The notes below the pieces were generated by a model. It was not told the DNA's origin and did not search any database. It was given only the letters and a program-made list of their open reading frames with translations. From an uncultured Pseudomonadota bacterium (GTDB lineage: Bacteria > Pseudomonadota > Gammaproteobacteria > Ga0077536): a DNA stretch of 64,000 nt. Below, in pieces: positions 7,598 to 55,375 of the stretch. A program made the position numbers and the translations under genes. The stretch is from NCBI GenBank assembly GCA_902551695.1, contig CACDEI010000003.1, positions 538 through 64,537 of the forward strand. The letters are read 5' to 3'. How positions within the stretch are numbered: the first letter of the stretch is position 1; each line of letters begins with the position of its first letter.

Positions 7598-7617
7598 TCG
7601 AGTTAGATTGGAAGCTA

Positions 7618-8824: not shown

Positions 8825-9033
8825 GAAGCTTAATTTAGAAGATCCCCAAAAAAACAGGCGGACGTATCCTGACTATCATCCCTCTACTTGGTATCATAGT
8901 TCTTTTTTTTTAAAATTTCAGCCATATGGCTGCAATAATCAACTTTATTTTGCCGAGCATTCTGAAAAGTATTAAGTCCCAAAAACCGATAAAAAATAAG
9001 TTGAAAACCCATAGAATAAGGAAACAATGCCTT

Positions 9034-9231: not shown

Positions 9232-9291
9232 TGTTTGCTTGAAGGGGTTTGAAAAAATGTGAAAACTTACTAGGAGTTAAATACTAATACC

Positions 9292-10098
9292 ATGAAGAAA
9301 AAACAGAAAAAAAAGGGCGATGATTTACTTGAAGTTGGTAGCTACCAATTCTCTTCCCGACTAATGGTAGGGACTGGAAAATACAAGGACATTGATGAAG
9401 CACGGCAAGCTATACTAGCGAGCGGAGCCGAAGTTATCACCGTAGCGGTACGACGAGTGAATATCGGACAGGATAAAGATTCCCCAAATCTATTGGATGT
9501 GTTTCCCGCTACTAAATTCACTATGTTGCCAAATACTGCCGGCTGTTATGATGCAAATACTGCGATTAGAACCTGTCTCCTGGCTCGAGAGCTCATGGAC
9601 GGACATAGTCTCGTCAAGCTGGAAGTTCTTGGGGACGAAAGAACTCTGTACCCAAATGTTATTGAAACTATTTCGGCTGCGAAAACCTTATGTGAAGACG
9701 GATTTGAGGTATGGGTATACACCACAGACGACCCCATTGTCGCAACTGAGTTAGAAGATATTGGATGTTCCGCTATTATGCCTTTGGCGGCTCCTATCGG
9801 TTCGGGCCTTGGCATACAAAATCGGTATTCGATTAGATCAATAGTAGAAAACAGCGGTGTTCCGGTAATTGTGGACGCAGGCGTTGGAACCGCATCTGAT
9901 GCCAGTGTGGCCATGGAGCTCGGGTGCGACGGGGTCCTAATGAATACAGCAATAGCTGGTGCGCAGAAACCAGTGTTGATGGCTTCGGCAATGAGAAAGG
10001 CGGTTTCAGCTGGTAGAGAGGCCTATCTTTCCGGAAGGATTCCGAAAAAGCCTTATGCCAGCGCTTCCTCTCCTATCGACGGAAAATTTTTTGATTGA
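9292..10098 (+). CDS. thiG: Thiazole synthase ThiG
   Basis: 268 aa with motifs [18 protein letters not shown] and [11 protein letters not shown]. Confidence 0.95.
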
Positions 10099-10115
10099 TC
10101 AGATTTTAGCTATCC

Positions 10116-10802
10116 GTGGAAGGTGAGTGGGTCTTGAAAAGAACCATTAAAAGTTTTGTTAAGAGAGCTGGCCGTATAACCAGCGCACAAAGGAAAGCGA
10201 TTGAGGAATTTCTACTGGACTTTTCTTTCCGCTCACGACTATCTTTTCAAGGAGAAAATGCGTTTCTTAAACATCGCCCTCTGTACTTAGAGATTGGATT
10301 TGGTAACGGGCTGAACCTGGTGAGGCAGGCGGAACATTATCCCGGTCGTAATTTTATAGGATGTGAAATCTACGAATCGGGAATCGGTAGCACGTTAATA
10401 AAACTAAAAAATAGGGGTATTAGCAACGTTCGAATTGCGGTTGGAGATGCGTTAGAGACTATCGAGTATTTATCTCTCAAATCCCTGGATGGTGTTTTTA
10501 TTCTTTTTCCAGATCCTTGGCCAAAAAAAAGACATAATAAAAGACGATTGGTTAACAAAGATTTTCTTAAGAAAATAGGACCAAAAATGAAGGATCATGC
10601 AAAAATATTTATGACAACAGATGACCAGTCTTACGCGCAAGAGATAATAGAGGTTTTAGCAGAGGACGTATTTTTTGAAAATATCGCAGGGGAACGTTCA
10701 TTTGCTCCGAGACCTTCGTGGAGAGAGAGTACTAAGTTTGAAGAGCGCGCCCATCGTCTCGGTAACTCAATATTTGAAATAATCGCGTGTCTTAAGAACT
10801 AG
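10116..10802 (+). CDS. trmB: tRNA (guanine-N7)-methyltransferase
   Basis: Motifs IKSFVKRAGRIT, EIGFGNG and FPDPWPKKRHNKRR. The thiS-thiG-trmB order matches Pseudomonas-type genomes. The exact start is uncertain (GTG 10116 or TTG 10134). Confidence 0.9.
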   Translation: MEGEWVLKRTIKSFVKRAGRITSAQRKAIEEFLLDFSFRSRLSFQGENAFLKHRPLYLEIGFGNGLNLVRQAEHYPGRNFIGCEIYESGIGSTLIKLKNRGISNVRIAVGDALETIEYLSLKSLDGVFILFPDPWPKKRHNKRRLVNKDFLKKIGPKMKDHAKIFMTTDDQSYAQEIIEVLAEDVFFENIAGERSFAPRPSWRESTKFEERAHRLGNSIFEIIACLKN

Positions 10803-10810
10803 AAGTTTTG

Positions 10811-11461
10811 TTACAAAAGACTAGAATAATTTTCTATAAGGAAGAAATCCTCGGATGAGTATGCCTCCCCTTTACTGTTTGGGCGTTGTACTCCGTAAGT
10901 GTGTTTGATACCAAATTCCTTCGCAGTTTTTAGCACATTTAAGTTGTCGTCAATTAAGATGCTCCTTGACTTGTTAAAGTTATATCGTCTGTGGAATCCT
11001 TTCCAGAAACCTAGACTTTCCTTGGCTAGCCCGATCTCATGGCTGGATATTATGTGATCGAAGTAGTTCCCTATAAGAGTTTTTTCTAATTTCCGGTCCA
11101 AGCCCCTAGGGTGTGCATTTGTGACTAAAAACAGAGTAAGGGGCTTTTGCTTTAGAGCCAATAAAAATTCAATTGCTCCTGTCCGAAGGCTGATATAGTG
11201 AGATAAAGCGATCTCTATCTCATCAATATCTATATCTAGGGCCCTTTTCCAGAAGTCTAAATCATACCAACTCAGCGTACCTTTGTTTTCCTCAGTGATC
11301 AGCTCTATTCTTAATTTAGCTTCCGTCTTGTTTAGGTTATCTTTGGAGGCTAGTCTGCGGGGTAGTTCAACGTGCCATACTTTGTGATCGTAATACAGGT
11401 CCAATAACGTGCCGTCCATATCGAGAAAGCAAGTATCGATAGTATTCCAGTCTAATCTCAT
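10811..11461 (-). CDS. HAD-superfamily hydrolase (YrfG-like nucleotidase)
   Basis: HAD motif I is FLDMDGTLLD. LVTNAH and a distal DD motif (ILIDDN) are also present. Confidence 0.7.
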   Translation of the reverse strand: MRLDWNTIDTCFLDMDGTLLDLYYDHKVWHVELPRRLASKDNLNKTEAKLRIELITEENKGTLSWYDLDFWKRALDIDIDEIEIALSHYISLRTGAIEFLLALKQKPLTLFLVTNAHPRGLDRKLEKTLIGNYFDHIISSHEIGLAKESLGFWKGFHRRYNFNKSRSILIDDNLNVLKTAKEFGIKHTYGVQRPNSKGEAYSSEDFFLIENYSSLL

Positions 11462-41407: not shown

Positions 41408-41734
41408 GTGATTAGAAATATTATCTGTGCCTCGAGCTTGATATTCGCTTTTTGTTCTCCCTCTCAGGGCTCAAACGAAAGTGGCCATAATGAGAATAGT
41501 AAACCTGCTGATTCCCAAGCTTGCGTGGTTAACTATCCGGCCTTTGAGGTCGAAGTTCCTCATTTCGATTTAATGCAATGTCCTGAAAGCGAAAATGTGT
41601 CTGTGTCGGAAGGTATTTGTAGGCTAGCAATAATAGGTAATAAAGCCTACCTTTATACATTCAAACTGAAAAGTGGTTCGCTATGTCTATCTAACGCTAA
41701 AGAGGTGCCTTTGGCAGATTACTTTTCTGACTGA
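41408..41734 (+). CDS. Small Cys-containing secreted or lipoprotein candidate
   Basis: 108 aa with a GTG start, a hydrophobic N-terminus (IFAFCSPS, a possible lipobox) and 6 Cys. Confidence 0.4.
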   Translation: MIRNIICASSLIFAFCSPSQGSNESGHNENSKPADSQACVVNYPAFEVEVPHFDLMQCPESENVSVSEGICRLAIIGNKAYLYTFKLKSGSLCLSNAKEVPLADYFSD

Positions 41735-42882
41735 TCTGCTTGCTCAAAAATTGTGTAGGAGCGAAGGGTTTCAGCGACAAATTCTCTAGAGGATTCTGCA
41801 TCATAATTATCCTCTTTTTCTAGTGCTGCGGCATAAGCGAACATACGAGAAAATAAAGGTCTGTTCGATACTTTTTTTCGAATCCAAAATTGATCGTTTT
41901 TCTCGATTAGAGCTGTCCACGCTACTCGTACGTCTTGCCAGTATGCTTTTGTTTTTCTCCAATAGTCTTCGGCAGCTGAAATATCTAAATTGCTGATGAG
42001 TTCATAGCGAGCAATGCCTGCCTCTCTTGCTTTGAAGGATTGATTATTCTCAATGTCTTGCGGATTAGTTATGACCATCTTTAGGTTGTCTTCTTCCTGC
42101 ACCCATCCTGAGGGCAAAACCGTAATTCGATTGGTACCCCAGAGTACATCATAGTCAGATCGCACACTAAACTCTCGTCGTGGTAGAGGTCGTAATGTTT
42201 CTTTACTTTCCCAAACAGACATCTTTTTAAAATGATTCCATTTTCCTGTTGAAGCATATCTCGGCGAATCATCTACTTGGTAAACCGTTTGAGACCAAGA
42301 GTTAGCAGATTCCTTTGTAAGCTGTCGCCTATGCCATCCTTTCGTTAGGTTGTGCACTAGCATTTGAGATGGTGCATATTGCCAATCCTGCCGCCAGTGT
42401 TTCATTACCATGGGCTTAGAAGTCTTGCCATCCTTATCGACAAAGGTCATTACTAATATATGCTGAAGGCTGATGAATTGAGGATTATCTTCAATGACAA
42501 GAACATATTCAGTGCCCCAGGATTGATAGGGTCGGTCGGGTTTTGAGATTGGATCATGAACAATTGTTTCGATGAAATCAAATGTCACGCGGTGGTTTCC
42601 AGCCATGGAAAGTATTGCGTGGCGATCCCTCTCAAAGTTTGAATGTTCTTCGTTGGAAAGTTTCCTCCATGCACTATTCGATTCATTTGACAGCTCTACA
42701 GTACTACCCTTCGTAGTTCCTCCGCGGGGCCGCATAGCATCTGAATCCTGAAATTGCCAGCTAAAAGTGAATTGCTTTTTCTCCTTGTCCACAGCCGAAC
42801 CCCCTTGAGAATAAGCTGTTGAAGCAGTAGACAGCGCCAATTGAAGCAATGCGCTAAAAATGAGGATTATTTTAAATTTCAT
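41719..42882 (-). CDS. Secreted protein of unknown function
   Basis: 387 aa with a signal peptide (ALLQLALSTASTAYS), rich in Trp. It is the last gene of the apbE-led minus-strand operon. Confidence 0.55.
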   Translation of the reverse strand: MKFKIILIFSALLQLALSTASTAYSQGGSAVDKEKKQFTFSWQFQDSDAMRPRGGTTKGSTVELSNESNSAWRKLSNEEHSNFERDRHAILSMAGNHRVTFDFIETIVHDPISKPDRPYQSWGTEYVLVIEDNPQFISLQHILVMTFVDKDGKTSKPMVMKHWRQDWQYAPSQMLVHNLTKGWHRRQLTKESANSWSQTVYQVDDSPRYASTGKWNHFKKMSVWESKETLRPLPRREFSVRSDYDVLWGTNRITVLPSGWVQEEDNLKMVITNPQDIENNQSFKAREAGIARYELISNLDISAAEDYWRKTKAYWQDVRVAWTALIEKNDQFWIRKKVSNRPLFSRMFAYAAALEKEDNYDAESSREFVAETLRSYTIFEQADQSEK

Positions 42883-42907
42883 AGCTATCCTTATTGTTTA
42901 ATAGGGT

Positions 42908-43351
42908 TTAGGAACGTCTATTTTTTCTCCCTATCCAAATGTGAATTATTAGCAGAAACGGTAGTGAAAACCCCACAGCAGCGTGAAGATTTGCAAGCAC
43001 TGTTCGACCTTCGGCCCAGGCGACATAGTATAGGAGATAGGCTGTGACTATTTGAAAAGTTACCAACACCACCAACGTTAAACCCATATATCTTGAACGT
43101 CCTAGCCTCCAACCAGCCGGTACATGGCTCGTTAGAATTGCCCCGAAGCTTATTAAGATTAAAAAAGCTCCCGCTCCATGTGCCATTAATATAGGAAACT
43201 GGGCTGGATGTTTTTCAGGACCAAAGGGTCCTTCGATTTCGCCCCAATTGTTTAAGTAATAAAAGGCAGAGCCAGTAAGCCAGGAGAGCGTGAGAAAGGT
43301 AAACAGTAGATACCGGTATAGTTTTGGTATTCGAAAGCCTATTCGGCTCAC
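42908..43351 (-). CDS. Four-TM His-rich membrane protein (DUF4405 / b-type-cytochrome-like candidate)
   Basis: The start was chosen at a GTG overlapping the apbE TGA (GTGA). Conserved His sit in TM helices (LMAHGAG, NLHAAVG, IIHIW). The longer track ORF would overlap apbE by about 130 nt. Confidence 0.5.
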   Translation of the reverse strand: MSRIGFRIPKLYRYLLFTFLTLSWLTGSAFYYLNNWGEIEGPFGPEKHPAQFPILMAHGAGAFLILISFGAILTSHVPAGWRLGRSRYMGLTLVVLVTFQIVTAYLLYYVAWAEGRTVLANLHAAVGFSLPFLLIIHIWIGRKNRRS

Positions 43352-44181
43352 AGTACACTCCAGCACGTTAAGCCGTTTTGATCGATGTTTAAACGGGCAT
43401 GATCGATGCCTAAAATGTCCTGCTCTGGTTTTATCGAGTAAATTTTTGTGAGGGCGTCCGCATCGATACAGTTTTCGCAAAAAACACTGACGCTTGGAGC
43501 ATTAGCAATTATTTCCTTATCGGCCACTATACTTCCTCCAAAGTAAGGCCCGCTAGTTGCTACGGCACTATTATTCATCTTAACAGTAATCGTATCAGCG
43601 AATGGCTCTTTTGGTATTCGAATAGCTACTTCACTGCCTTTCCATGGCCAGCTTTTTAGGTCGCCTCCGGCGTTTACTACGATTTTGCTTATTTTATTCG
43701 TCTCTAATTCTTCACGTGCTATACGCTCAAAGCCAAGGTCTACTGCATAACCTTTGGCAATACCCCCCAAGTCAATTAATAAAGGCTTTCTGTAATGAAC
43801 CTCATTATTTTCTATTTCTATATCTTGCCAGGTCGCTTCAGCAGAACAATCAATACCATGATCGGGTAATTTGCCTTTTTGGACTAAATGGTAACCTACT
43901 GTCATGTCAAATAATCCATCGCTTAATTCACTATATCTAGTACCTATTCTTAATACTTCAGAAAGCTCTTTAGATATCTTTACAGGACCTTTGAAAGCAG
44001 ATTGATTTACTCTTGAAAGTTCACTCTCTCTCGAGTGAAAACTCATTTTGTTGTGAATATCCTGAATGATTCCATATGCACATTCTGAATATTTTAAAAG
44101 AATCTCCCTATCACAGTCGCCAGTAATTAGAATTTCAACAAAGGTTCCCAGCAAAGGTTTGCAACGAGTGATGGTGTTCAA
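43348..44181 (-). CDS. apbE: FAD:protein FMN transferase (ApbE family)
   Basis: Motifs LGTFVEI, SELSRVN, FDMTVG, DLGGIAKGYAVD and ADALTK are typical ApbE blocks. Confidence 0.85.
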   Translation of the reverse strand: MNTITRCKPLLGTFVEILITGDCDREILLKYSECAYGIIQDIHNKMSFHSRESELSRVNQSAFKGPVKISKELSEVLRIGTRYSELSDGLFDMTVGYHLVQKGKLPDHGIDCSAEATWQDIEIENNEVHYRKPLLIDLGGIAKGYAVDLGFERIAREELETNKISKIVVNAGGDLKSWPWKGSEVAIRIPKEPFADTITVKMNNSAVATSGPYFGGSIVADKEIIANAPSVSVFCENCIDADALTKIYSIKPEQDILGIDHARLNIDQNGLTCWSVL

Positions 44182-45331: not shown

Positions 45332-46108
45332 TCACCTTCGATCTATGAAGACTCTTTCTTTGCCAATCCACATCGCGGACCTTTTAAAATCTATAAACTT
45401 TTTCTCGTCTTCGATTGCGATTTGCATAGCTTCGGTGGCTTCAGGCACATCTCCTAACATCATAAGATCAGCCCTATTAAACCATGCCTCAGCATGACCA
45501 ACGTAGGGCTCAATAACTGTTCCTCTGGCCTCTGTTAAAGCTTTTGAGATAGTAGTTTCGCAATGGTGTACCTGAAGGTATCGCTGCATTCTGAAGCCTG
45601 TTGAAACCCCTCTTATCAACGGCCCATGATTGGTGCGCCAGTAATGTTGACATTCCTCAATGCTTTGGGTTTTAGGCTGACGCAAACAAAAGAATAACTT
45701 TACCAGAGGGGAATGCTGAGTAGCTACCATATACTCAGTAGGATTGACTTGAGGGTATTCGTAAGCAAACCAAAGCGGTGAATTAGGAAGGTCTATGAAT
45801 TGTTTTTCATCATCTAGTAGTTCTTGAGCGGCTATTGCTCCTTCCTCTGTAGTGAAGGCATTTAGATCATCTACTGACTTCCACCAGAGTTCTGCTACTC
45901 CATCATATATAGGTTCCATCCCACCACGCGCTTCCGCCAAACCATCGTTTATCGGATCGTCCAAAGTGTGTAATTGAATATAGCGATGTATTTTTAAAGT
46001 AGTAGAATGTCTTGAAACTAATGGGCCGTGCGTGTTTTGCCAGTAATCTTGGAACTCCTCTCGACTCATGCCTTCTTTTCGCCGCAGTGCAAACTCAATT
46101 CTTATCAT
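45332..46108 (-). CDS. Tandem EthD-domain protein
   Basis: There are two internal repeats: EEFQDYWQNTHGPLV...RYIQLH and EECQHYWRTNHGPLI...RYLQVH. Confidence 0.7.
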   Translation of the reverse strand: MIRIEFALRRKEGMSREEFQDYWQNTHGPLVSRHSTTLKIHRYIQLHTLDDPINDGLAEARGGMEPIYDGVAELWWKSVDDLNAFTTEEGAIAAQELLDDEKQFIDLPNSPLWFAYEYPQVNPTEYMVATQHSPLVKLFFCLRQPKTQSIEECQHYWRTNHGPLIRGVSTGFRMQRYLQVHHCETTISKALTEARGTVIEPYVGHAEAWFNRADLMMLGDVPEATEAMQIAIEDEKKFIDFKRSAMWIGKERVFIDRR

Positions 46109-46229: not shown

Positions 46230-46607
46230 TTAGTCTCCTAGCTTTGCTTTAGCGGCTTCCCAGTTTAAACCATCAAATGGTTCTATCTTAATAGAGTTCC
46301 AAGTCTTAGGGTGTAGGCACCTAGCATTAACACTGTAACAAGTAGGGTGAGACCGAGGGATATAAAAGGACTTGATGCCGCAATTTCTGCAGAACAAGTG
46401 AGTTGCCTTTCCCGTGTTAAAGCTATACTCAGTAAGCATTGCTTTGCCCCTGATAAGACTAAATTCATTTTTTGGAACAATGATGTGTAAATAGCCGAGT
46501 CTGCTACATATACTACAGTTGCAGTCTAAAGCTTTGAGATTTTTTGGTCCATTAAATTCGAACGTCACCTTGTTGCAGTGGCAGCTTCCCTTATGTAGAA
46601 CCATCAA
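46230..46607 (-). CDS. GFA (glutathione-dependent formaldehyde-activating / CENP-V) family protein
   Basis: The zinc-binding Cys pattern is GSCHCNKV...CNCSIC...FCRNCG. 125 aa. Confidence 0.85.
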   Translation of the reverse strand: MMVLHKGSCHCNKVTFEFNGPKNLKALDCNCSICSRLGYLHIIVPKNEFSLIRGKAMLTEYSFNTGKATHLFCRNCGIKSFYIPRSHPTCYSVNARCLHPKTWNSIKIEPFDGLNWEAAKAKLGD

Positions 46608-46693: not shown

Positions 46694-47605
46694 TTAATTA
46701 CGGCCATACTGCAAAGGAAAATGGACAGTTACTAATACTCCATCATTGCGCTGTGCAAGCTCTCGCATGAGAGTCGAGAATCGGTCTCCCACGCCCCAAG
46801 GAAAGGCAATCCCGTGAATCTGAGCGCTTTTATATTTTTTGTCTTTTTTTTGATTCAGAATTTGAATTCTTGTTATGACGTCGTCGTAGGAAGGTCCCGT
46901 AAAATCATCACCCATTACATAGATTGAAATTCCGCCTGGAACATTGGAGTGAAACCTTAAGGCCTTCTCTAGTCCTTTTGTGGGATTGCTATTAGAAAAG
47001 GAATTCCATCTTTTCAGCTTTTCAGAAATTCTTTGCCGGGTTATCTGCGTGTCTGGAACCCATCTGGAAGAATAGCCTTGCAACAGATAATCTCCATTAT
47101 CACTCATTATTTGGATTCCTTTGACCTTCGGATGAATCGATAGGATGGTATCGATTTGTTTTTCGACTGTGGCCCAGAATCTTTTCATGCTCCCAGAAGT
47201 GTCGAGGATAAAAACAACATACTCTCTTTCGACCGGGATTCCTCCAGCGTAGATGGACTCAATGGGCTTAATATTGGAATGGTTCGGAACTGAAGGTTTC
47301 TTTTCCGACTGGATCGATGAGATTTCCACGTCTTTTTTTTCTTCGACTAATGTCATTAGTTGTACTTCGAGATCACGCTTTCTACGATTTAGATCGTTAA
47401 TCTCGTTTTCCAGGTTTCTTATTTTTGTTTTGACTTGCGTTTCAGATGAGGTTCTTGCTTCCGGTTTGAATAACTCTGCCTCAATAGGATCAAATTTTGA
47501 ATCCTTGGCAATAATGACTAGCATAATCACAGCACCAAACCCGCACGATATGATATCTAAAAACGACATACCGACATCAAAATTGGAGCGCTGTTTTATT
47601 TTCAT
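46694..47605 (-). CDS. ExbD/TolR-like TM (conserved Asp) plus coiled coil plus vWA (MIDAS) protein, paralog 2
   Basis: The ATG at 47605 overlaps the upstream stop (ATGA). The TM SFLDIISCGFGAVIMLVIIA resembles ExbD PFIDVMLVLL. A coiled coil follows. The vWA domain has DTSGS, NPTKG and a YVMGDD MIDAS set. Confidence 0.7.
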   Translation of the reverse strand: MKIKQRSNFDVGMSFLDIISCGFGAVIMLVIIAKDSKFDPIEAELFKPEARTSSETQVKTKIRNLENEINDLNRRKRDLEVQLMTLVEEKKDVEISSIQSEKKPSVPNHSNIKPIESIYAGGIPVEREYVVFILDTSGSMKRFWATVEKQIDTILSIHPKVKGIQIMSDNGDYLLQGYSSRWVPDTQITRQRISEKLKRWNSFSNSNPTKGLEKALRFHSNVPGGISIYVMGDDFTGPSYDDVITRIQILNQKKDKKYKSAQIHGIAFPWGVGDRFSTLMRELAQRNDGVLVTVHFPLQYGRN

Positions 47606-48621
47606 TTTAACCAATAACTTGCGGGTGAAAAGAGAGTGCCACCGGTCGAGTTTGCCCAATGTAGGTAATTGTGCGCGGCTCTTGGATCGCCCTCTAGAGC
47701 TAATAAGATAACGTTTACTTTCACACTGGATTGGTTGCCGAATTTGTTAATTGCCTCTAAGAAAAATGTTTCCCTACATTCACCGCTAACGTATTGCGAG
47801 TTGGAGTTTCTGCATCCCTTTATAAACTTCCCAATAGCTCTTATTGGGTTGGTCTGCCCCGAGAGGGTAGGAAGACCGTCAGTGACAAGATAGATATCAG
47901 TAGCTTCGGAAGAACTACTTTGAATATGCTCGAGAACAGTCGCGAGGCTAGTTCCATTTTTAGGTGAAATGTTCTTTATGCTCGTATTGAATTGGTTGAG
48001 TGTAGAAACACTATCCCCCCACGAGGAACTCTCGAAGGTTATTTTCTCCGAAAATCCGATAACCTTTAGTAGACTAGAATCCGGAGCTTTTTTTATAAGC
48101 CACCGAGTGATGTTTTTCGCTTGACGCCATTTTCTTCCCGACGCTAGTCTTTTGCCTGACATGTCCTCTAACCCACTTAAAATATCAATAAGCTGGGGAA
48201 AAGCCATCGATGCGCTGGTATCTAGCAGGATCTGTATTTTCGGTCCTGTTACTGCCAAGCCAATGAGTTGATTTGCCACATCTATGTCTTTTCTTTGGGG
48301 TTCTGGTTCAGCAGTTTTATCAATATCTTGCAGTTTTAATTTTGTCTCTAATAGCTTCACAGTTGAGTCACTTACTTTTTTTGAGAGCCTTTTTATTTCA
48401 TTAAGTTTCGAATTTTTTGCATCCAGCATTGCTGCATACTTTTCCTCTAAGTGAACAGTGTTATTCTCTATGGCGGGGCCATTAATTATTTGCGGGACGG
48501 ATTCTTCATTAAAGTCAAGGATGAAAAAGAGTAGGATGACCGCGCCAAGACCGCAGGCCATCACGTCAATAAAAGCTAAGGTAGATATGTTTGTTTCACG
48601 TTTTTGTCGCACGTTACGCAC
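47602..48621 (-). CDS. ExbD/TolR-like TM (conserved Asp) plus coiled coil plus vWA (MIDAS) protein, paralog 1
   Basis: The TM is AFIDVMACGLGAVILLFFIL, followed by a coiled coil. The vWA domain has DTSAS, NGTSL and a LVTDG MIDAS set. The start lies 4 nt after the stop of the MotA-like gene. Confidence 0.7.
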   Translation of the reverse strand: MRNVRQKRETNISTLAFIDVMACGLGAVILLFFILDFNEESVPQIINGPAIENNTVHLEEKYAAMLDAKNSKLNEIKRLSKKVSDSTVKLLETKLKLQDIDKTAEPEPQRKDIDVANQLIGLAVTGPKIQILLDTSASMAFPQLIDILSGLEDMSGKRLASGRKWRQAKNITRWLIKKAPDSSLLKVIGFSEKITFESSSWGDSVSTLNQFNTSIKNISPKNGTSLATVLEHIQSSSSEATDIYLVTDGLPTLSGQTNPIRAIGKFIKGCRNSNSQYVSGECRETFFLEAINKFGNQSSVKVNVILLALEGDPRAAHNYLHWANSTGGTLFSPASYWLK

Positions 48622-48625
48622 ATAT

Positions 48626-49387
48626 TTATTTGGAAATACTAATTCGCTCGATCAGATATTTTTCGCAATATTCCTGTACTTTCACCAGTTGCTCGTCCTG
48701 ATTTTTTTGTAAGAATGAAAGTAATAGCATTATAACTACGCTGGCTAATAATGCGACGAAGGTAGAATTGAAGGCGGTTCCCAGACTTTCGGTCATTGGT
48801 CCGATATCGCCTGCTACAGCATTTTGCGCTTGACTCATCGCCATTCCTATCCCTCTGACCGTGCCTAAAAAGCCGATAGATGGGATTGCCCAGACTATGT
48901 ATTTAATAACTGCAAGCTCAGCCTCATTTTTCACTGCCATCGCTTCTAAGGCTGGAGAGATCGATTCAGACGCATTTTGCACGCTTCCAGTTATCATGTA
49001 TCGACGAAGGGAAGAGGCTATGGTTTGTACTAAAGGTGCTGATCGGATTTCTTGAGGGAGAGCGTCTATTGAACTTAAAATATTCTTAGTATCTTTTTCG
49101 TTGTCTTGTATGTCTTTGAGTAGATCTACATCGAATAAGTAATCCCTAGAGGATGTTTCGTAGAACTTGCTGGCGGTTAGGTATAGGCCCCATAGAAAAA
49201 GAATAATCGCGATTTCTTGCTCAATATCTTTTACTATTATAAAGAAATTCCTTGGTAGTAGGTCACCGGTACTCTTGGCCATTATTTGTAAGTGGTTTAC
49301 TTCTGGTATTATCCACATTGTATATAGAAGATGAACCGTTAAAATTATACCAATTAGAACGACAATATTTGTTGTGGTCTTTTTCAT
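48626..49387 (-). CDS. MotA/TolQ/ExbB-family proton channel protein
   Basis: 253 aa. The C-terminal signature is IPSIGFLGTVRGIGMAMSQA...MTESLGTAFNSTFVALLASVVIM. Confidence 0.8.
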   Translation of the reverse strand: MKKTTTNIVVLIGIILTVHLLYTMWIIPEVNHLQIMAKSTGDLLPRNFFIIVKDIEQEIAIILFLWGLYLTASKFYETSSRDYLFDVDLLKDIQDNEKDTKNILSSIDALPQEIRSAPLVQTIASSLRRYMITGSVQNASESISPALEAMAVKNEAELAVIKYIVWAIPSIGFLGTVRGIGMAMSQAQNAVAGDIGPMTESLGTAFNSTFVALLASVVIMLLLSFLQKNQDEQLVKVQEYCEKYLIERISISK

Positions 49388-49391
49388 GTGC

Positions 49392-49517
49392 TCACATGTT
49401 TCTTGGAAATGGTGTCGGCTCGTTAAGCGATATATTTTTGTTTGATTTCGAATATATAGTTTGAGTTAGAAGTATTAGGAAGAACAAAAGGACAATCATT
49501 TTCCAGAAAGTTTTCAT
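49392..49517 (-). CDS. Possible 41-aa single-TM micro-protein inside the operon gap
   Basis: Manual translation gives MKTFWKMIVLLFFLILLTQTIYSKSNKNISLNEPTPFPRNM*. It starts 12 nt after the upstream stop and ends 4 nt before the MotA-like ATG. There is no clear Shine-Dalgarno. Confidence 0.3.
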   Translation of the reverse strand: MKTFWKMIVLLFFLILLTQTIYSKSNKNISLNEPTPFPRNM

Positions 49518-49529
49518 TGGTTTTCTACT

Positions 49530-51554
49530 CTAATTAATATAGCGAGCTATACGAAATCCTACGTCAATTCTTCCGTCATTTGAAGTATCTTTGTAAGATG
49601 CCCTTAACTCAGTCCAACTGGCAGATAAATAGTTTGATCCTTTGATGACGTGACTAGCACCCTTGGGTTTCCCCATATAGTCAAAATATACCTTAGTTAC
49701 TTCAGGTGGGTCGAGCAAATAGAAGTCGTGTGTCCACTCGCTTACATTCCCAGACTGATCATGTAGGCCAGATATTTCCGCATCAAAACTACCCGATGGT
49801 GCTATACCCGCGAAGCCATCATTATATTCTCCTAAAAATATTTTAACTGTTCCCTTCGCGGATTCGTCTGCAATATTTCCGGCGGCTTCTGGAACTTCAT
49901 AATCGTTTCCCCAAACAAAGGTGGTAGGTGCCTTTTTTCCTGCCGCTCGAGCCACGTATTCCCATTCTGCTTCTGTAGGTAGCCTATAACCAAGCGAAGA
50001 CTTATCGAAGCCTATTATTCTAGACTGCCTGCTAATGTAAAATGGCTCGAATCCTTCTTTTAAACTTAGCCAGTTACAGAAGGTTGCTGCCTCTTCCCAG
50101 CTTATTGAACGAACTGGTAAACGACTACCCTTAGGCGCAAGAGAAGAATTGGAGTTCTCGTTTTCAAAGATAGCATATTGTTTCTCTGTTATTTCAAACT
50201 TCCCTATATAAAAGGCTCGAGTAAAATCTACCTTCCGTAAGTGCTCGTTGGCTCGTTGACCTTTTTGATTCCTAGGAGCGCCGATCTTAATTTTTGAAGG
50301 GATGAACCGGTTCATTACAATTCCCATTGAATTCTTTACGGAAGGTTGGCTATTTGCAAGTCTATAATCACTCACAGTAGTAAGCTTCCTGTCGTGACGG
50401 ATTTTCTTGTTAGCTTCGATAGCGATTGTTTTAGAATCCTCAATATAATTCGGAGCTTTCAGGGTAATGAGATGTTGCTTTGCGAGTAATTTAGCATTCA
50501 TTGGGGTTTCGCCAACTAGTTCACCCTCTATGAAAACTTTCGATTTCGGCGAAGAAAGTATCTCAACTGAACCGTAAATAGGTTTTAATTTGAAACTAAT
50601 TTTTTTGTCATCAGGATAAACCACTATAGTTTCCCCCTGGTGGCCTCCAGCCTCATAACGGACCAGACTTTGCTCAATCGCATCTATACTGATTTCTGAG
50701 GTGATTTTGCGATATCTGTTGTTGATAAATAATCGACCAGCCGGAGGGTGAAATTTAGCGCTTACGAGTCTGGTTTTTTTGGCTAATGAATATGTTCTGT
50801 CCACGATTGTCTTTTCATTTTTAGTATCTATAGCTTGTGAAATGGATTTATATCCAGTTTTTTCTATACGTAAGTTAATTTTCCCGGCTTCTAAAATTCC
50901 TTTCCACGGACTGTTCCCTACTAACTCATCATCGATAAAAATCTTAGCGTCAGTCGGCCTTGTCTTTATCGTAAAAGAGACAGATTTCAAATGAGTGTCA
51001 ACCCGAATCATGGGAGACGTGACTGGTTTTATAGAAACCAACTGTTCATCTGCAGTATGGTAATCAGAGGAAAGCGCTATTTTATACTCTCCTGGTTTCA
51101 GTTTCAGAATAGGGTTTTGGTCTTCAGATGAAATTATACCGTTGACTATCCATTTAGGGTTGCTCAATTCTACCGCAGAGGTAAGTGATGTGCTCACGGG
51201 TGCATAGCTTAATTTTATTTTGACGATTTTTTCTGGATTTTTTGATGAAATAATTTTCCGTTCCTCGATGAATCCAGGTGCTTGAATTATGATGGTTGTG
51301 CTACCAAAAGGAAGTAGCACGCGGTCGCCGATGGTTATTGAAAAACCTGCTTCTGTTGACAGATTATATGCTTTCTCAGGAACTGGCTGCAGGTGTACTT
51401 TGAAGGAGGTGGCATAGGCGTAGAAGAAAAGCGCGGAAACCAACAGGGATGTTATCCCTGCTATTATGTAAACAATTTTTCTTTTTCTAGTGCTTTTAGC
51501 TTCTTCGATTGCGTTAATAAATTCGTTCACCACAGGTGATCCTTTTCGGCTCAA
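49530..51554 (-). CDS. Membrane-anchored protein with PEGA repeats and an FGE-sulfatase (SUMF1-like) domain
   Basis: An N-terminal TM is followed by at least 3 PEGA-like modules (for example PTDAKIFIDDELVGNSPWKGILEAGKINLRIEKTGYKS). The C-terminal domain carries YIGKFEITEKQY, PVRSISWEEAATFCNWL, RLPTEAEWEYVARAA, GNVSEWTHD and GFRIARY. Confidence 0.8.
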   Translation of the reverse strand: MSRKGSPVVNEFINAIEEAKSTRKRKIVYIIAGITSLLVSALFFYAYATSFKVHLQPVPEKAYNLSTEAGFSITIGDRVLLPFGSTTIIIQAPGFIEERKIISSKNPEKIVKIKLSYAPVSTSLTSAVELSNPKWIVNGIISSEDQNPILKLKPGEYKIALSSDYHTADEQLVSIKPVTSPMIRVDTHLKSVSFTIKTRPTDAKIFIDDELVGNSPWKGILEAGKINLRIEKTGYKSISQAIDTKNEKTIVDRTYSLAKKTRLVSAKFHPPAGRLFINNRYRKITSEISIDAIEQSLVRYEAGGHQGETIVVYPDDKKISFKLKPIYGSVEILSSPKSKVFIEGELVGETPMNAKLLAKQHLITLKAPNYIEDSKTIAIEANKKIRHDRKLTTVSDYRLANSQPSVKNSMGIVMNRFIPSKIKIGAPRNQKGQRANEHLRKVDFTRAFYIGKFEITEKQYAIFENENSNSSLAPKGSRLPVRSISWEEAATFCNWLSLKEGFEPFYISRQSRIIGFDKSSLGYRLPTEAEWEYVARAAGKKAPTTFVWGNDYEVPEAAGNIADESAKGTVKIFLGEYNDGFAGIAPSGSFDAEISGLHDQSGNVSEWTHDFYLLDPPEVTKVYFDYMGKPKGASHVIKGSNYLSASWTELRASYKDTSNDGRIDVGFRIARYIN

Positions 51555-52980
51555 TTGAACCTCGTAGCGGTATTTCCAATTCAGTTATTTTCGTTTTATG
51601 CCCAACACAGGCGCCATACAGCAGGTAAGATCCAGGTTTTAAATCAATTGTTCTCTCTAGTGTAGGCTCTATAAATCCCACACCTTTTATTTCGATTCTC
51701 GTTTTTTCATCTGACTCAATTAACAATGATCTCGGTCGTAAAGTAGTATCAATCAGGATACGCACGTCCTCATATATGGCCGAGAGTTTTTTACTCTTAT
51801 CCCTTATTTCTGAGGATTCTACGAGAATAGTTCTCGCAAAAGATTCAACTTCTGGGTCAGTTAATCGCATGGGGTCTTCTCGTAGCATTGCTAGTTGCTT
51901 AGTGCTCTCAATTATTTTTTTCGATAGATCTAAGCCTTCTATTATTTCTTCATCAGTACTATTTAGCGTTTGTGCGTTATTAAAATGTAATAATGCACTC
52001 TCCCAATCGTCGATCTGCGTGCTTGCTAACGCTTTTTTTTTCCATTGCTTGGAAAGTTTTATATCTCTCTTTACTGTGATTTCTGATTCCAAAGCTTTAG
52101 TAGAAGCTGTGTCCCCGGCCAAGGCTTGAGCTTTCTGAATTTCCACTAAAGCTTCTTCGAAATAACCCAGATCTTTTAGAGCAACTGCCTCTCCAATAAG
52201 CTTGTTGTATTCCTGATTTTTAAAAAATTCCTTTAGGAAAATTTTTCTTTTTATTTGTTCTTCGTTTAGTTTCCCTAATGCTTCGATTTCCTCTAGAGCT
52301 TTTAATTGCGAATTGATGTCGTTAGCTGCGATTGCTTTTCGTAGAAGTTCATACTTGGAGAATAATTTTCGGTTATTGTTTAATTTCTCTTTCCATTCAA
52401 TAACTCGCTCATCTGCGGGAGCTAAACTTTCGACAGATTCGAGATATTTGATTGCTTCGGCATAATTTTTTTCCCAGTAGGCTGATTCAATTCTTTGAAA
52501 ATGACTACTAAGAAGGTTTTCTACGCTATTAATCAGTTCTTCAGCCTCGAGAAGTTTTTTCTTCATGCTAACTGGCTCTATCAACCCATCATTCTGCTGC
52601 GAGTGGGCTAACTCATCCTTAAACCAGGATATTAGTCTTTGAGCATCACCTGCATATGTGTTCTCAGTTTGGTTTGAGTTAACAGACAGAGCAATTTGTG
52701 TCAGCTTCGGTTTTAAAATACTTTCATATTCTTCAAAAAGAGAGAGTCTTTCGGAAGGTTTATGGCGCTGGGTTTTATTAGGTAAAGTGTTTGGGCGGTC
52801 ACCATATTCAGGAATTTCACTTATATCTGTATAACTAATGAATAGAACTGGTAGTAAGACAACTGCACTAACAAAGGCCGTAACTAATAATAGTCTCTTT
52901 CTACCCGTGTTCTTATTTTTAGCCGCTGCAACTAAGACGCCTACCTCCGTTTCCGCATTCTTGTTGCTTTTTTCGATCAT
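51514..52980 (-). CDS. Membrane-anchored helical-repeat (TPR-like) protein with a C-terminal beta domain
   Basis: An N-terminal TM (LLLVTAFVSAVVLLPVLFI) is followed by repeated Y..A...L..A..L-type helices. The C-terminal segment resembles PEGA (IEIKGVGFIEPTLERTIDLKPGSYLL). Confidence 0.55.
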   Translation of the reverse strand: MIEKSNKNAETEVGVLVAAAKNKNTGRKRLLLVTAFVSAVVLLPVLFISYTDISEIPEYGDRPNTLPNKTQRHKPSERLSLFEEYESILKPKLTQIALSVNSNQTENTYAGDAQRLISWFKDELAHSQQNDGLIEPVSMKKKLLEAEELINSVENLLSSHFQRIESAYWEKNYAEAIKYLESVESLAPADERVIEWKEKLNNNRKLFSKYELLRKAIAANDINSQLKALEEIEALGKLNEEQIKRKIFLKEFFKNQEYNKLIGEAVALKDLGYFEEALVEIQKAQALAGDTASTKALESEITVKRDIKLSKQWKKKALASTQIDDWESALLHFNNAQTLNSTDEEIIEGLDLSKKIIESTKQLAMLREDPMRLTDPEVESFARTILVESSEIRDKSKKLSAIYEDVRILIDTTLRPRSLLIESDEKTRIEIKGVGFIEPTLERTIDLKPGSYLLYGACVGHKTKITELEIPLRGSIEPKRITCGERIY

Positions 52981-52988
52981 TTTTTAGG

Positions 52989-54248
52989 TTAAAGGGTGAT
53001 ATCGGGCGTTTTGTCTAGCTCATACAGATCTTTTAGAAAGCGCTTCCAGATTTGATATTGTTCAGCTGCATCGCCTTTCAGCTCTATTGTTTGTTCTTCA
53101 AAATTAATTACTTTAGGTGCTAGTTGGATATTTAATGATCTGCCCAACTCATTCATGCTCGCTTTGTACATCTTTGCATCTGCGGAATCACTCATTCCGC
53201 TTCCTATTGTCGCGACACCAGCCGCCGCAACAAGGGTTCCGCCAAGTGCTTGCCCCCCTCCGCTGAAGGGGTCGGAGGTAGCGACGAGAGCGATTCCACC
53301 CGCGACTGCTGCGGCTCCCAAAAGTTTTTTACCGATTCCCTTTAATTTTGCTTTTCTGGCTGCTTTACTTTCGAAGTAAGACTCCCGTTGCCACAAACTG
53401 TATTCTTCCCACATTTGACGCGAGAAATTGTCATAGTCCTGTTGCAAATTGTCTACAAAAAGCAAATCTCTTACCCTGAGCTCTTCGGTTCTTCTTAGCA
53501 TCCTGTCTTCATCTGCAGGTGCGGATGTAAGCCGGGTAATTCCTCTCTTGGATGTTTCTAAGTAGGGTGAGAAATATTCTGGTGAAAAACTTTCAGCGAA
53601 CCTTAATGTTTCTATAGTTTGTAAGGTATTCATTTTATCTGAGGGTAATTTTCTTAGGATTCTCGCAATGTCACTAGCGATTTTTTCGAAAAGTGGATCA
53701 TAAAGATCATAGCTGGAATCATTTCTAGGGTTGTTCAACTCGTACTCTTTAACTCGATGTTTATATAACTTATCCTGGAGCAAGGTCTCTCCATTGATGG
53801 CGGTTAAAGAAACAGAAATTTCAATATCTTCGCCGTTCGAGTCTACTATTTTTCCCGATAAATAAAGGTCTCCTGTTGCGGTTTTATCGGGGACCACCCG
53901 AGCGGATTCGAAAGTATTCGTGTTATTGAGGGCATCTCTAAGTTTGACAGCAAAGTGATTTGCCTCAGCACGCCGTAACTCCGGCCAAATATTTTTTTTG
54001 GTGAATTCGTCGGAATTTTCAGGAATATTTGGATCAAGAGGTAGCACAAGAATCGATAAATCAGTTCGCTTTGTCTGTGAGCTCCCAACGGATGATTTGG
54101 GTTCCGATCCATAGCTGGGACCTACGGAATACCCTTTTTGAGAACTAGATTTTCCCGTCGTTGTTACACACCCATTCAAGAAAATCGCGAGGGTGCACAT
54201 TCCCAGTAAAATTCTGGGTTCTAAAAAACGATTAGAAGTAGTCATCAT
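52989..54248 (-). CDS. Lipoprotein with a C-terminal glycine-zipper segment
   Basis: The lipobox is FLNGC. ILVLPLDPN plus a sandwich-like N-domain recalls the CsgG/LpoB-type lipoprotein fold. A Gly/Ala-rich stretch reads LLGAAAVAGGIALVATSDPFSGGGQALGGTLVAAAGVATIGSG. The start overlaps the upstream stop as ATGA. Confidence 0.55.
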   Translation of the reverse strand: MMTTSNRFLEPRILLGMCTLAIFLNGCVTTTGKSSSQKGYSVGPSYGSEPKSSVGSSQTKRTDLSILVLPLDPNIPENSDEFTKKNIWPELRRAEANHFAVKLRDALNNTNTFESARVVPDKTATGDLYLSGKIVDSNGEDIEISVSLTAINGETLLQDKLYKHRVKEYELNNPRNDSSYDLYDPLFEKIASDIARILRKLPSDKMNTLQTIETLRFAESFSPEYFSPYLETSKRGITRLTSAPADEDRMLRRTEELRVRDLLFVDNLQQDYDNFSRQMWEEYSLWQRESYFESKAARKAKLKGIGKKLLGAAAVAGGIALVATSDPFSGGGQALGGTLVAAAGVATIGSGMSDSADAKMYKASMNELGRSLNIQLAPKVINFEEQTIELKGDAAEQYQIWKRFLKDLYELDKTPDITL

Positions 54249-54928
54249 AATTCCTCGTATCTTCGCATAAGCGCCTCTTTTACATCTGGATCATTTTCCT
54301 GTTCAGCTCTGGCTTTGATTTGCTCTTTTAAAATTTGCGTGTTGTTTGATTTCTCTAAGGTTTCATGAGCGCGACCTTGCAAAGGGGGTGGCGCCGCTAA
54401 GTCTGATTCTGTAGAGAGCGCTTCTAGGTCCTGATTGAAATTCTCGAGCATCAATCCTCCCTTATCGGTTAATGCTACAGAGTTCTCTCCTGATTCTAGG
54501 ATGTTGGAGGAAAGTGAGACATCTGCGGTTGAAGAGATTATCGTTTTAGATTTTCCCCCTTGGCTAACCTCTTCGCTTGGACTTGAAGGAGATTCACTCG
54601 AGGAGGACCCGAATTGGCTGCTAGAATCGGAATCATTTAGCTGTTCTATGCTGCTCGAGTCCACATTTTCACTGTCGCATTGCTGAAATTTGGATAGCTC
54701 AACAGAGAAGTCACTGCTTAAAGTTTTGAGCTTTTCCTCTCTCGTTAACGGGCCTAGAGCGCTGTTTTTGTGATCAATCTCGGCACATTCGGAAAACGCA
54801 GAGGGATTCGCGCTAGCTGCTGAGATCTTAAAACAAGAAAGAAATAATAAAATAACCATCGAGCAGTGCAGTAGTGGAACTTTTTTCTCTGCAATATTTG
54901 CGGGTTGGTTATAGTATGATTTAGCCAA
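54245..54928 (-). CDS. Acidic Ser-rich secreted protein (first gene of the operon)
   Basis: A signal peptide (VILLFLSCFKISAASA) is followed by a low-complexity acidic/Ser tract and a C-terminal amphipathic helix. Confidence 0.45.
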   Translation of the reverse strand: MAKSYYNQPANIAEKKVPLLHCSMVILLFLSCFKISAASANPSAFSECAEIDHKNSALGPLTREEKLKTLSSDFSVELSKFQQCDSENVDSSSIEQLNDSDSSSQFGSSSSESPSSPSEEVSQGGKSKTIISSTADVSLSSNILESGENSVALTDKGGLMLENFNQDLEALSTESDLAAPPPLQGRAHETLEKSNNTQILKEQIKARAEQENDPDVKEALMRRYEEL

Positions 54929-55102
54929 TCGTATAACACCTTTGTTAAGGCTCTGATTAAGACTAAATGATGGCTATTTACTATAAATTTTGCAAGTTTC
55001 ACTAATTTACTGCTTCATTTTTTACCTTGCCAATTGGAACACCCTAAAAGCATTAAGGTGAAGTTTTATTAAATCAATGATGTACATTGGAGTATAAGTC
55101 AG

Positions 55103-55375
55103 TTACCGACCCCAACCTATATCTTCATCCTGCATTCGATATTCATAAACCTCTTGTCCTTCACCAAAAAAGCTAAATGTCCCGTCTTCTTCCAGAGTGA
55201 TCGGAACATTGACCTGCAAACGCTTTGCGAATTCGGGAACCTGATAAAAGGCTTCTTCAAAACTCTCGAAACTATTGCTTTTATTTACTGTATTCATTTT
55301 TTCCCATGTTTTACCATGCTTAATCATTGTTGTCTGTACGACAATACGTCTTTTCCCGATCAGTGATCTAGGCAC
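55103..55375 (-). CDS. Hypothetical protein
   Basis: A 90-aa ORF with no recognisable motifs. The start is uncertain. Confidence 0.3.
   Translation of the reverse strand: MPRSLIGKRRIVVQTTMIKHGKTWEKMNTVNKSNSFESFEEAFYQVPEFAKRLQVNVPITLEEDGTFSFFGEGQEVYEYRMQDEDIGWGR

Follow-up and report, generated by a model that had tools for sequence, protein, structure and literature searches.

An eight-gene operon of largely marine bacteria that likely encodes an envelope machine built around an ion-driven, vWA-headed motor

The closest described relatives of the system considered here come from a purely computational study, based on AlphaFold 3 (AF3), in which a TolQ-like pentamer was predicted to assemble with a heterologous pair of proteins that join a trans-pore helix (TPH) to a vWA domain (PMC12204202; Mol Biol Evol 2025;42:msaf138, June 2025, Fig. 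4c-d). In this class, termed 'motor-driven force transducers' and seeded from Idiomarina loihiensis, the vWA genes co-occur tightly with tolQ homologues and no tolR or exbD is present; the trans-pore helix carries a conserved Asp that faces a Thr ring, the pairs are mostly heterologous, and the members occur mainly in Proteobacteria and Verrucomicrobia, with no function or phenotype assigned (PMC12204202). We analysed a 64,000-nt stretch of DNA (the window; contig CACDEI010000003.1 of GenBank assembly GCA_902551695.1, positions 538 to 64,537 of the forward strand) from an uncultured gammaproteobacterium of the Ga0077536 lineage. As a preliminary description made from the sequence had reported, the window holds eight co-directional open reading frames (ORFs), here called g1 to g8, on the minus strand from 54928 to 46694. 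Very probably all eight are one functional unit, and we consider it likely that they encode a single envelope machine around an ion-driven motor of the 5:2 type, whose arms end in metal ion-dependent adhesion site (MIDAS) heads. The preliminary description could not match the operon to any known system. With regard to characterised systems this holds, but the three-gene core, g6-g7-g8, is already among the published predictions (PMC12204202).

The core belongs to that class, since every sequence-level feature of the class is present. Both g7 and g8 carry a vWA domain on one N-terminal transmembrane (TM) helix; g7 follows g6, a tolQ/motA-family gene, after a gap of 4 nt, and no tolR, exbD or motB accompanies them; the trans-pore helices of g7 and g8 bear an Asp and lack the SHLS/His motif; the two vWA proteins form a heterologous pair (about 15% identity); and the Thr-ring residues of the A subunit, T176 and T209 of g6, are invariant. 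The assignment is made by the described features of the class rather than by direct orthology to the Idiomarina seed, and the nearest taxa to Idiomarina that we verified as carriers are Alteromonas, Glaciecola, Paraglaciecola and Opacimonas. The published account discusses the three core genes only: its text makes no mention of FGE, sulfatase or PEGA, its supplements do not describe neighbours, the TPR gene to which it refers is part of the other vWA class (Fig. 4a), and the five genes upstream of the core are not named (PMC12204202). A MotAB phylogeny does not cover vWA partners (PMC12505986), and our literature searches (PEGA or FGE with TolQ or ExbB, stator with von Willebrand, and combinations of annotation names) found nothing beyond PMC12204202. 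As far as we searched, the complete eight-gene system, with its micro-peptide, its non-catalytic lectin, its PelC/TolB-N-like lipoprotein and its mostly marine range, is undescribed; a computational prediction of three genes thus becomes a defined system of eight components with a fixed gene order.

The predicted pentameric A subunit is g6 (48626-49387, minus strand; 253 aa), and its assignment to the MotA/TolQ/ExbB family in the preliminary description survived profile searches (Pfam MotA_ExbB, 2e-12). Searches of the PDB with the single sequence and with a profile gave MotA as the best match at a non-significant E of 0.09-0.23, and g6 with five orthologues was therefore aligned directly with E. 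coli TolQ and ExbB (from NC_000913.3). Ten columns are identical in all eight sequences (g6 P169, G172, G175, T176, V177, G179, I180, A205, T209 and L213), and the same ten are invariant in 26 orthologues, as are the motifs GFxGTVRGIG (T176) and AFNST (T209). T176 and T209 align with T145 and T178 of TolQ and with T148 and T181 of ExbB, which we take, in this numbering, to be the pore threonines of those proteins. At its N-terminus g6 is longer than TolQ and ExbB by one hydrophobic segment and a loop, giving four hydrophobic segments in total, which matches the four TM segments of MotA. All NCBIfam scores for g6 are far below their cutoffs (tolQ, 14.3 bits vs. 221; exbB2, 18 vs. 135; MotA1, 18.5 vs. 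303.8), and none of the eight proteins falls into a curated NCBIfam equivalog.

The place of an ExbD, TolR or MotB subunit would be taken by g7 (47602-48621, minus strand; 339 aa) and g8 (46694-47605, minus strand; 303 aa from ATG 47605). They had been described as two paralogous vWA proteins, and our comparisons agree: g7 matches Pfam VWA_2 at 3.8e-7 and g8 below threshold at 0.048, and hhalign relates g8 to g7 at 99.5% (E 2.4e-22) across TM segment, stalk and vWA domain. The vWA nature of g8 was established through g7 because the g8 profile retrieved only coiled-coil noise from the PDB. Each protein has a basic N-terminus followed by a single hydrophobic segment (17-35 in g7, 33-51 in g8) that is predicted to form the trans-pore helix, FIDVMACGLGA with D19 in g7 and FLDIISCGFGA in g8. 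D19 is invariant in 20 homologues of g7 and the corresponding Asp in 29 orthologues of g8; conservation of both columns is 95% or higher in alignments of 52 sequences. The two residues align with D23 of TolR (PLLDVLLVLL) and D25 of ExbD (PFIDVMLVLL); FIDVM is common to g7 and ExbD, and neither the g7 nor the g8 helix contains His. An ExbD-like TM helix had been proposed for both proteins. The resemblance stands at the level of the motif and the aligned Asp, whereas Pfam ExbD matches neither protein; indeed, no operon protein matches an ExbD, TolR or MotB family in Pfam or NCBIfam, and none of these families occurs in the recurrent flanks. Four residues after the Asp, both helices also carry a conserved Cys-Gly-x-Gly-Ala motif (about 48553-48567 in g7 and 47545-47559 in g8). 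ExbD and TolR have Leu or Val at this position, and a conserved Cys inside a helix inserted into a pore is unusual.

Beyond the membrane, neither g7 nor g8 has a peptidoglycan-binding or TonB-coupling domain; about 95-115 residues, matched in length between the two, lie between membrane and head. In the AlphaFold2 (AF2) model of g7, a 47-residue helix (55-101), the putative stalk, precedes a vWA domain with a predicted local distance difference test (pLDDT) score above 90 over residues 120-339. Its structural matches in Foldseek are the minor pilin PilB (8.6e-7), BatB (7.8e-6 for 3ibs; also 4jdu), integrin I and anthrax receptor domains. A coiled-coil stalk likewise separates the trans-pore helix of g8 from its vWA domain. 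The full MIDAS signature, DxSxS...T...D, is kept in both paralogues, as D134-S136-S138...T224...D248 in g7 and, in the divergent domain of g8, as an invariant D153-T-S-G-S157...S/T...D251 (numbered on the long ORF). The head of g7 also holds an invariant pair, Cys270/Cys282, which, like the basic N-termini, agrees with a position in the periplasm. The spacer between the TM Asp and the first MIDAS Asp was measured by alignment columns, a regular-expression measurement having caught only 15 of 52 loci. Its medians are 135.5 and 135 residues in the two paralogues, and in the window's clade it has contracted to about 115-122 residues in g7 as in g8; these matched spacers are consistent with a paired stalk, and we do not count their apparent covariation as strong evidence.

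The same features have to be weighed against a more passive role, in which g7 and g8 would be Bat-like vWA anchors beside a TolQ/ExbB-like channel that either works by itself or uses an ExbD or TolR from another locus. The g7 head has BatB among its best structural matches, Bat operons likewise pair TM-vWA paralogues with TPR proteins, and the missing Pfam ExbD match would agree with such a role. However, an Asp that is invariant in an ExbD-like FIDVM context, in both paralogues and across phyla, would be unusual for a passive anchor, and in nearly all loci g6, g7 and g8 are translationally coupled, their junctions being overlaps or 4-nt gaps. In none of the loci examined does an ExbD or TolR gene lie beside g6, and neither the operon nor its recurrent flanks hold the MoxR ATPase or the DUF58 protein by which Bat operons are defined. 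The TM anchors of Bat proteins are not known to have an ExbD-like Asp. We regard passive anchoring as improbable, and an ion-driven motor of g6 with g7 and g8 as a likely assembly.

The five genes upstream of the core encode exported or largely periplasmic proteins. The largest, g4, is encoded at 49530-51554 on the minus strand (likely start GTG 51533 or 51530) and is a predicted single-pass inner-membrane protein with a basic N-terminus, a TM helix at 27-45 and no lipobox. Its reading as a TM protein with PEGA repeats and an FGE-sulfatase-like domain was upheld by Pfam (FGE-sulfatase, 2.8e-33; PEGA, 3.3e-20), the PEGA repeats being beta-sandwiches. An association of PEGA domains with peptidoglycan has been suggested (PMC7159879), which provides a lead for g4. 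The FGE-fold domain is related in the PDB to Treponema denticola TvpA (5e-13), human FGE (5e-12) and PorK/GldK (3e-9). At the position of human FGE C336 it has Ser in 49 and Thr in 3 of 52 sequences, and at that of C341 Thr in 36 and other residues in the remainder. Neither position ever holds Cys, and we therefore reject a catalytic FGE activity; with the catalytic cysteines replaced, the domain is better read as a C-type-lectin-like binding module than as an enzyme. Targeting of this lectin by a diversity-generating retroelement (DGR) was also considered and rejected, the domain being conserved and no reverse transcriptase lying nearby.

Next to it, g3 (51514-52980, minus strand) is a predicted single-pass inner-membrane protein with a periplasmic TPR array and a C-terminal beta domain. 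Its TM helix spans 30-48, and the protein is predicted to be N-in because its N-terminus is basic. The TPR-like repeats seen earlier behind the TM helix were weak from the single sequence and became clear with the orthologue profile (4e-15 against designed and natural TPR proteins). The C-terminal beta domain has a weak match to the PEGA region of g4 (hhalign 41%, E 2.8e-4) and may be PEGA-like; a comparison of g3 with g2, run as a negative control, gave no relation.

The lipoprotein g2 (52989-54248, minus strand; 419 aa) has an L-x-G-C27 lipobox with an invariant C27. A disordered linker leads to an alpha/beta domain (about 60-200) and then to a helix (249-324) some 75 residues long; a hydrophobic, Gly-rich 'zipper' (about 305-353) and a conserved segment at the C-terminus complete the protein, in line with its description as a lipoprotein with a glycine-zipper tail. 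The AF2 model has a pLDDT above 90 over residues 60-300, and the alpha/beta domain is matched by PelC (1.3e-3), the TolB N-domain (4e-3) and LptE in Foldseek; PelC is a dodecameric outer-membrane lipoprotein ring. No sequence relative of g2 was found in Pfam or the PDB with a profile or with Pfam scans of individual members, none is detectable outside the module, and all its database relatives are named 'hypothetical'. Its most likely predicted location is the outer membrane.

With g4 and g2 in hand, the analogy to the GldKLMN core that the preliminary description had drawn as a conceptual one can be weighed as a literal alternative. The operon would then encode an apparatus of the type IX secretion system (T9SS) or gliding kind, in which a GldL/GldM-like motor drives a periplasmic ring with a GldK/PorK-like FGE-fold protein and exports or moves a surface adhesin. 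Such an apparatus would share the logic of a 5:2 motor with a periplasm-spanning partner, the FGE domain of g4 matches NCBIfam GldK (1.2e-18) as well as PorK in the PDB, and the N-domain of g2 resembles the ring-forming PelC. Yet the GldK match reaches only 67.7 bits against a cutoff of 350 and reflects the generic FGE fold, which FGE and TvpA match equally well or better, and g4 is anchored by a TM helix and not by lipid. No relative of GldL, GldM, GldN, Sov or PorV, no beta-barrel and no secretin was found in the module or its conserved flanks, no linked cargo gene has a T9SS-type C-terminal domain, and the carriers are mostly Proteobacteria, which lack T9SS. A T9SS-type apparatus is thus about as improbable as passive anchoring, and the analogy remains conceptual only.

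The two remaining proteins are g5 and g1. What had been listed as a possible 41-aa TM peptide, g5 (49392-49517, minus strand), is a real conserved gene for an exported micro-protein that lies immediately upstream of g6; it was independently called as a 41-aa gene in one related locus (L002). Its basic N-terminus precedes a hydrophobic helix, at whose end many orthologues have an AxA-like site, so that cleavage of g5 may release a peptide of about 13-17 residues into the periplasm. The extreme C-terminal tail is conserved in all 51 intact loci compared; it reads ISLNSPxSFPVDI in most lineages, nearly invariant across phyla, and ISLNEPTPFPRNM in the window, whose clade has this variant tail (PFPxNM) alongside the shortened stalks of g7 and g8. 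The first gene, g1 (54245-54928, minus strand), encodes 227 aa counted from a TTG whose use as the start is uncertain. Its composition (36 Asp plus Glu and 40 Ser residues) agrees with its description as an acidic, Ser-rich secreted protein: a signal-peptide-like N-terminus, conserved C48 and C84 and a low-complexity acidic/Ser linker lead to a conserved helical motif at the C-terminus (orthologue consensus NGKxPEDIP...LWNEYRxYKG). No relative of g1 was found in Pfam, NCBIfam or the PDB with the orthologue profile and per-member Pfam scans. In one Arenicellales metagenome-assembled genome (MAG), the protein at the g1 position (L076:2691-3833, plus strand) has a C-terminal Trypsin_2 domain (3.8e-26), which is absent from the other 28 g1 orthologues scanned; either a fusion confined to this lineage or a different gene in the place of g1 may account for it.

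The genes are packed closely. Two ATGA start/stop overlaps noted earlier are real: g1/g2 at 54248-54245 (GAA TTA TGA over ATG ATG ACT) and g7/g8 at 47605-47602 (TTA AAA TGA over ATG AAA ATA). The latter makes ATG 47605 the most likely start of g8, rather than TTG 47659 of the longest ORF. Gaps of 8 nt (g2/g3), 12 nt (g4/g5), 4 nt (g5/g6) and 4 nt (g6/g7) lie within the 4-12 nt range given before. An overlap of 41 nt had been reported for g3/g4 (51514-51554); the overlap exists, but it is probably 17-20 nt long, because the GTG codons at 51533 and 51530 follow a Shine-Dalgarno (SD)-like GAAAAGGA and the commonest spacing among orthologues is an overlap of 17 nt or 14 nt.

To determine how widely this arrangement is kept, loci were collected by scanning one genome per species with the g7 alignment, which confirmed at least 535 loci and from which the best 80 were retained, and iterative hidden Markov models from the eight window proteins were searched against all ORFs of 84 related loci. 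Exactly g1 to g8, in fixed order and on one strand, were found in 53 of the 84, and seven more lack only a call for g5; nearly all of the remaining loci are explained by cuts at contig ends, splits by frameshifts or insertions, or effects of ORF calling. Among individual genes, g1 was found in 68 loci and is always first in the module, g3 in 75 and g5 in 73, while g7 and g8 occur in essentially all (167 matches). The family of g6 is large, with its close members coming from marine Gammaproteobacteria, and three relatives at 50-59% identity have the same neighbourhood with different flanks. A ninth conserved gene was sought in the flanks, and no family recurred in more than 8 of 82 loci; the module therefore consists of exactly these eight genes. 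The gene-neighbourhood comparison that the preliminary description had proposed thus finds the order recurrent amid unrelated flanks, and because the same eight genes stand in the same order across phyla, the arrangement is far beyond chance.

Carriers among Gammaproteobacteria are Porticoccaceae, Cellvibrionaceae, Methylophaga, Glaciecola, Alteromonadaceae, Arenicellales, Cycloclasticus, Endobugula and Amphritea; those among Alphaproteobacteria are Sneathiella, Rhodospirillaceae and Thalassobaculaceae; and Nitrosomonadaceae (Betaproteobacteria), Zetaproteobacteria, Nitrospirales and Desulfobulbales also carry the module. Nearly all sources are marine or sponge-associated. Searched exhaustively against 1.84 billion cluster representatives, the g7 profile matched 319 clusters with a threshold of E<=1e-30 and 1034 when the threshold was relaxed to E<=1e-10, and the top 150 matches are almost all 330-380 aa long, suggesting a family of modest size and uniform architecture. 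At least several hundred species possess the system, among them members of marine groups of ecological importance, namely Nitrosomonadaceae, Nitrospirales, Zetaproteobacteria, Methylophaga and symbionts of sponges and bryozoans. Cultured carriers exist as well (Alteromonas sp. S167, a named strain; Glaciecola punicea ACAM 611; Methylophaga sulfidovorans DSM 11578; Sneathiella litorea DP05; and Opacimonas viscosa), which makes the motor hypothesis directly open to genetics and cryo-EM.

Patterns of identity indicate that the module is stably inherited within genera and groups such as Sneathiella, Methylophaga, Nitrosomonadaceae and Arenicellales. Between phyla, the concatenated module proteins of a Desulfobulbales/'delta' MAG group (L061, L040, L069) and of Nitrosomonadaceae (L041, L071, L077) are 60-70% identical, with 70% between the Desulforhopalus and Nitrosomonadaceae copies. 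This is far above most inter-family identities within Gammaproteobacteria and indicates transfer of the whole operon between phyla. The modules of 'Candidatus Endobugula' (L017) and 'Granulosicoccus' (L028) are 95% identical although the MAGs are assigned to different orders: either the module was transferred very recently, or one of the MAGs is misbinned or misclassified. Broken copies were also seen: in an Arenicellales locus (L067, about 7000-11000) g4 is interrupted by an insertion of about 2.5 kb, and in Ca. Spongiihabitans thiooxidans (L051) g2 and g4 are each in two or three ORFs. These may be pseudogenes in sponge symbionts, or assembly errors.

A further alternative, likewise an improbable one, is an anti-phage or conflict system with Zorya-like envelope sensing by the MotA-like channel or sensing of invader molecules by the vWA and FGE-lectin domains: the weak PADLOC match of ZorA to g6 (1.2e-5), the DGR-diversified TvpA as best PDB match of the g4 lectin, the co-occurrence of vWA and FGS domains in predicted conflict systems (PMC7159879) and the movement of the module between phyla would accord with it, but Pfam, NCBIfam and PADLOC find no ZorB, ZorC, ZorD, nuclease, helicase, NTPase, protease or other effector in the operon, g6 is without the long ZorA tail and its PADLOC matches do not extend beyond the channel region common to both, cytoplasmic NTPases form the centre of the published vWA/FGS systems, with MotA, TolQ and ExbB never mentioned (PMC7159879), the g4 lectin is conserved rather than hypervariable with no reverse transcriptase nearby, and stable inheritance within genera in housekeeping contexts is unlike that of patchy defence islands.

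We thus return to the ion-driven envelope machine. In the mechanism that we propose, g6 would form the channel-bearing ring of A subunits, presumably a pentamer, and g7 and g8 would replace ExbD/TolR/MotB as a heterodimer, their N-terminal helices sitting in the g6 pore with the ion-binding Asp facing two conserved rings of Thr. A flux of H+ or Na+ would drive rotation of the ring relative to the g7/g8 dimer, whose helical stalks would end in periplasmic vWA heads with intact MIDAS; through a metal ion these heads would bind an acidic ligand on which the motor could pull or turn. Scaffold and load would be supplied by g1 to g5, with g3 (TPR) and g4 (PEGA and lectin domain) reaching from the inner membrane into the periplasm, g2 most likely at the outer membrane and g1 as an acidic periplasmic protein; g1 and g5 are candidate ligands of the MIDAS or regulators. 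The operon encodes no ATPase, enzyme active site, beta-barrel or secretin, and for this reason the output is most likely mechanical and not catalytic, a force transduced to the periplasm or outer membrane in a manner like that of Tol-Pal, Ton or T9SS (GldLM-PorKN). We lean slightly towards a complex that reaches the outer membrane. As to its physiological role, envelope maintenance or tethering is a tentative suggestion, and adhesion, surface movement or export is still less likely. The proton-motive-force (PMF)-driven trans-envelope machine with MIDAS-ended arms postulated in the preliminary description is supported by the pore Thr of g6, the Asp of g7 and g8 and both MIDAS motifs; the domain assignments behind it survived profile searches, the genes are co-conserved, and no characterised system with an assigned function matches the set.

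Several observations weigh against this interpretation. The similarity of the g7 and g8 helices to ExbD, which escapes the Pfam ExbD model, extends over about ten residues and cannot reach significance by itself; g6 is very divergent from every solved motor subunit and is detected by the Pfam family model only. The TM helix of g7 has low confidence in the AF2 model, which, like the other structure predictions here, is of a monomer. The covariation of the g7 and g8 spacers comes essentially from a single event in one clade (Pearson 0.86, Spearman about 0), the rank correlation in the main group being nil. The fold matches of g2 have marginal scores (E 1e-3 to 1e-2, with a TM-score of 0.5 on the target), and only the residue that follows the lipobox Cys points to the membrane in which it would lie. 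Finally, no peptidoglycan anchor, outer-membrane barrel or known substrate can be recognised in any operon protein, and no experimental phenotype is reported for any member.

More speculatively, and with doubt outweighing confidence, the operon might represent a previously unrecognised, largely marine class of trans-envelope rotary machine, in which a heterodimeric vWA rotor, turned by a MotA-like ring, engages a periplasmic or outer-membrane scaffold through metal-dependent contacts of its MIDAS. The scaffold would consist of g2 as a PelC-like lipoprotein, g4 as a PorK-like lectin protein raised on PEGA repeats and g3 as a TPR protein, with the processed g5 peptide (about 15 residues), g1 or both as ligand or clutch of the MIDAS. 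If true, it would be a third kind of coupling of the PMF to the outer membrane beside Ton and Tol, with a physiological role of its own.

The genomic setting of the operon is unremarkable. Its GC content (about 0.40) and skew are like those of the remainder of the window, and its neighbours are housekeeping genes, with DUF6607, cytochrome b561, ApbE, methyltransferase, EthD and GFA on one flank and DUF423, SOUL and BrkB-like proteins on the other; it lies in no defence or mobile island. Rfam and tRNA scans of the whole window gave no match. A consensus scan of the AT-rich candidate promoter region upstream of g1 (54929-55102, minus strand) found a single promoter-like site, TTGGCA-18-TAAATT at 55033-55004, the number of sites in the region being no higher than in shuffled sequence; promoter and terminator counts in general were not above shuffles, and the site is tentatively taken as the operon promoter. 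Directly upstream on the same strand is a 90-aa ORF (55103-55375, minus strand) that has no family match and falls outside the conserved module in other genomes. Just downstream, also on the same strand, a protein with two tandem EthD domains (45332-46108, minus strand; Pfam EthD 7.6e-31, two stretches) adjoins a GFA-family protein (46230-46607), and neither is co-conserved with the operon in other genomes. Farther on, genes for DUF6607 (3.8e-66), a membrane protein resembling cytochrome b561 and a flavin transferase of the ApbE type follow one another on one strand (41719-44181, minus strand); they may form a small redox module of the periplasm that has no connection with the operon.

When the defining components of known systems were searched for one by one, the earlier view that the operon fits none of Tol-Pal, TonB, flagellar stators, Zorya and Bat was confirmed. 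For Zorya, PADLOC gave partial ZorA matches to g6 (E 1e-5 to 3e-4), covering the channel region of a 253-aa protein against models of 505-590 positions, and nothing for the other seven proteins. The vWA-MoxR/STAND conflict systems differ in that the operon has no NTPase and its vWA heads are predicted to be periplasmic. Bat operons share a membrane-anchored pair of vWA paralogues, TPR proteins and a head structure close to that of g7; they are without a MotA-family channel, and this operon is without their MoxR AAA+ ATPase and DUF58. GldKLMN (PorKLMN) resembles it in combining a 5:2-type motor, a periplasm-crossing B subunit and a non-catalytic protein of the FGE-sulfatase fold. In the operon, however, g6 is a canonical member of PF01618, unlike GldL, g4 is TM-anchored and not a lipoprotein, no translocon or cargo is present, and NCBIfam finds no GldL, GldM or GldN. 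The stators MotAB and PomAB, and ZorAB, have in common with the operon a MotA-family channel and an Asp on the partner helix; here there is neither a flagellar context nor a ZorA tail, g6 is below the MotA1 cutoff, and the C-terminal domains of g7 and g8 are vWA and not OmpA-like. No ExbD or TonB match of the Ton system was found in the operon with Pfam and NCBIfam, and g6 is below the exbB2 cutoff. Nor did NCBIfam detect TolR, TolA, TolB (beta-propeller) or Pal (OmpA-like), g6 also being below the tolQ cutoff. Tol-Pal nevertheless offers many points of likeness: a TolQ-family channel with the same pore Thr, an Asp-bearing partner helix, a tightly coupled operon, single-pass inner-membrane proteins that span the periplasm, a TPR protein, a lipoprotein, a soluble periplasmic protein and, at the level of the fold only, a TolB-N-like domain in g2. 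What sets the operon apart from Tol-Pal is that the TM helices of g3 and g4 do not carry the SHLS/His motif, that PEGA, FGE-lectin and micro-peptide components are added, and that its B subunits are a vWA-headed heteropair. An obligate heteropair of B subunits with integrin-like MIDAS heads would be a coupling principle not seen in any characterised 5:2 motor.

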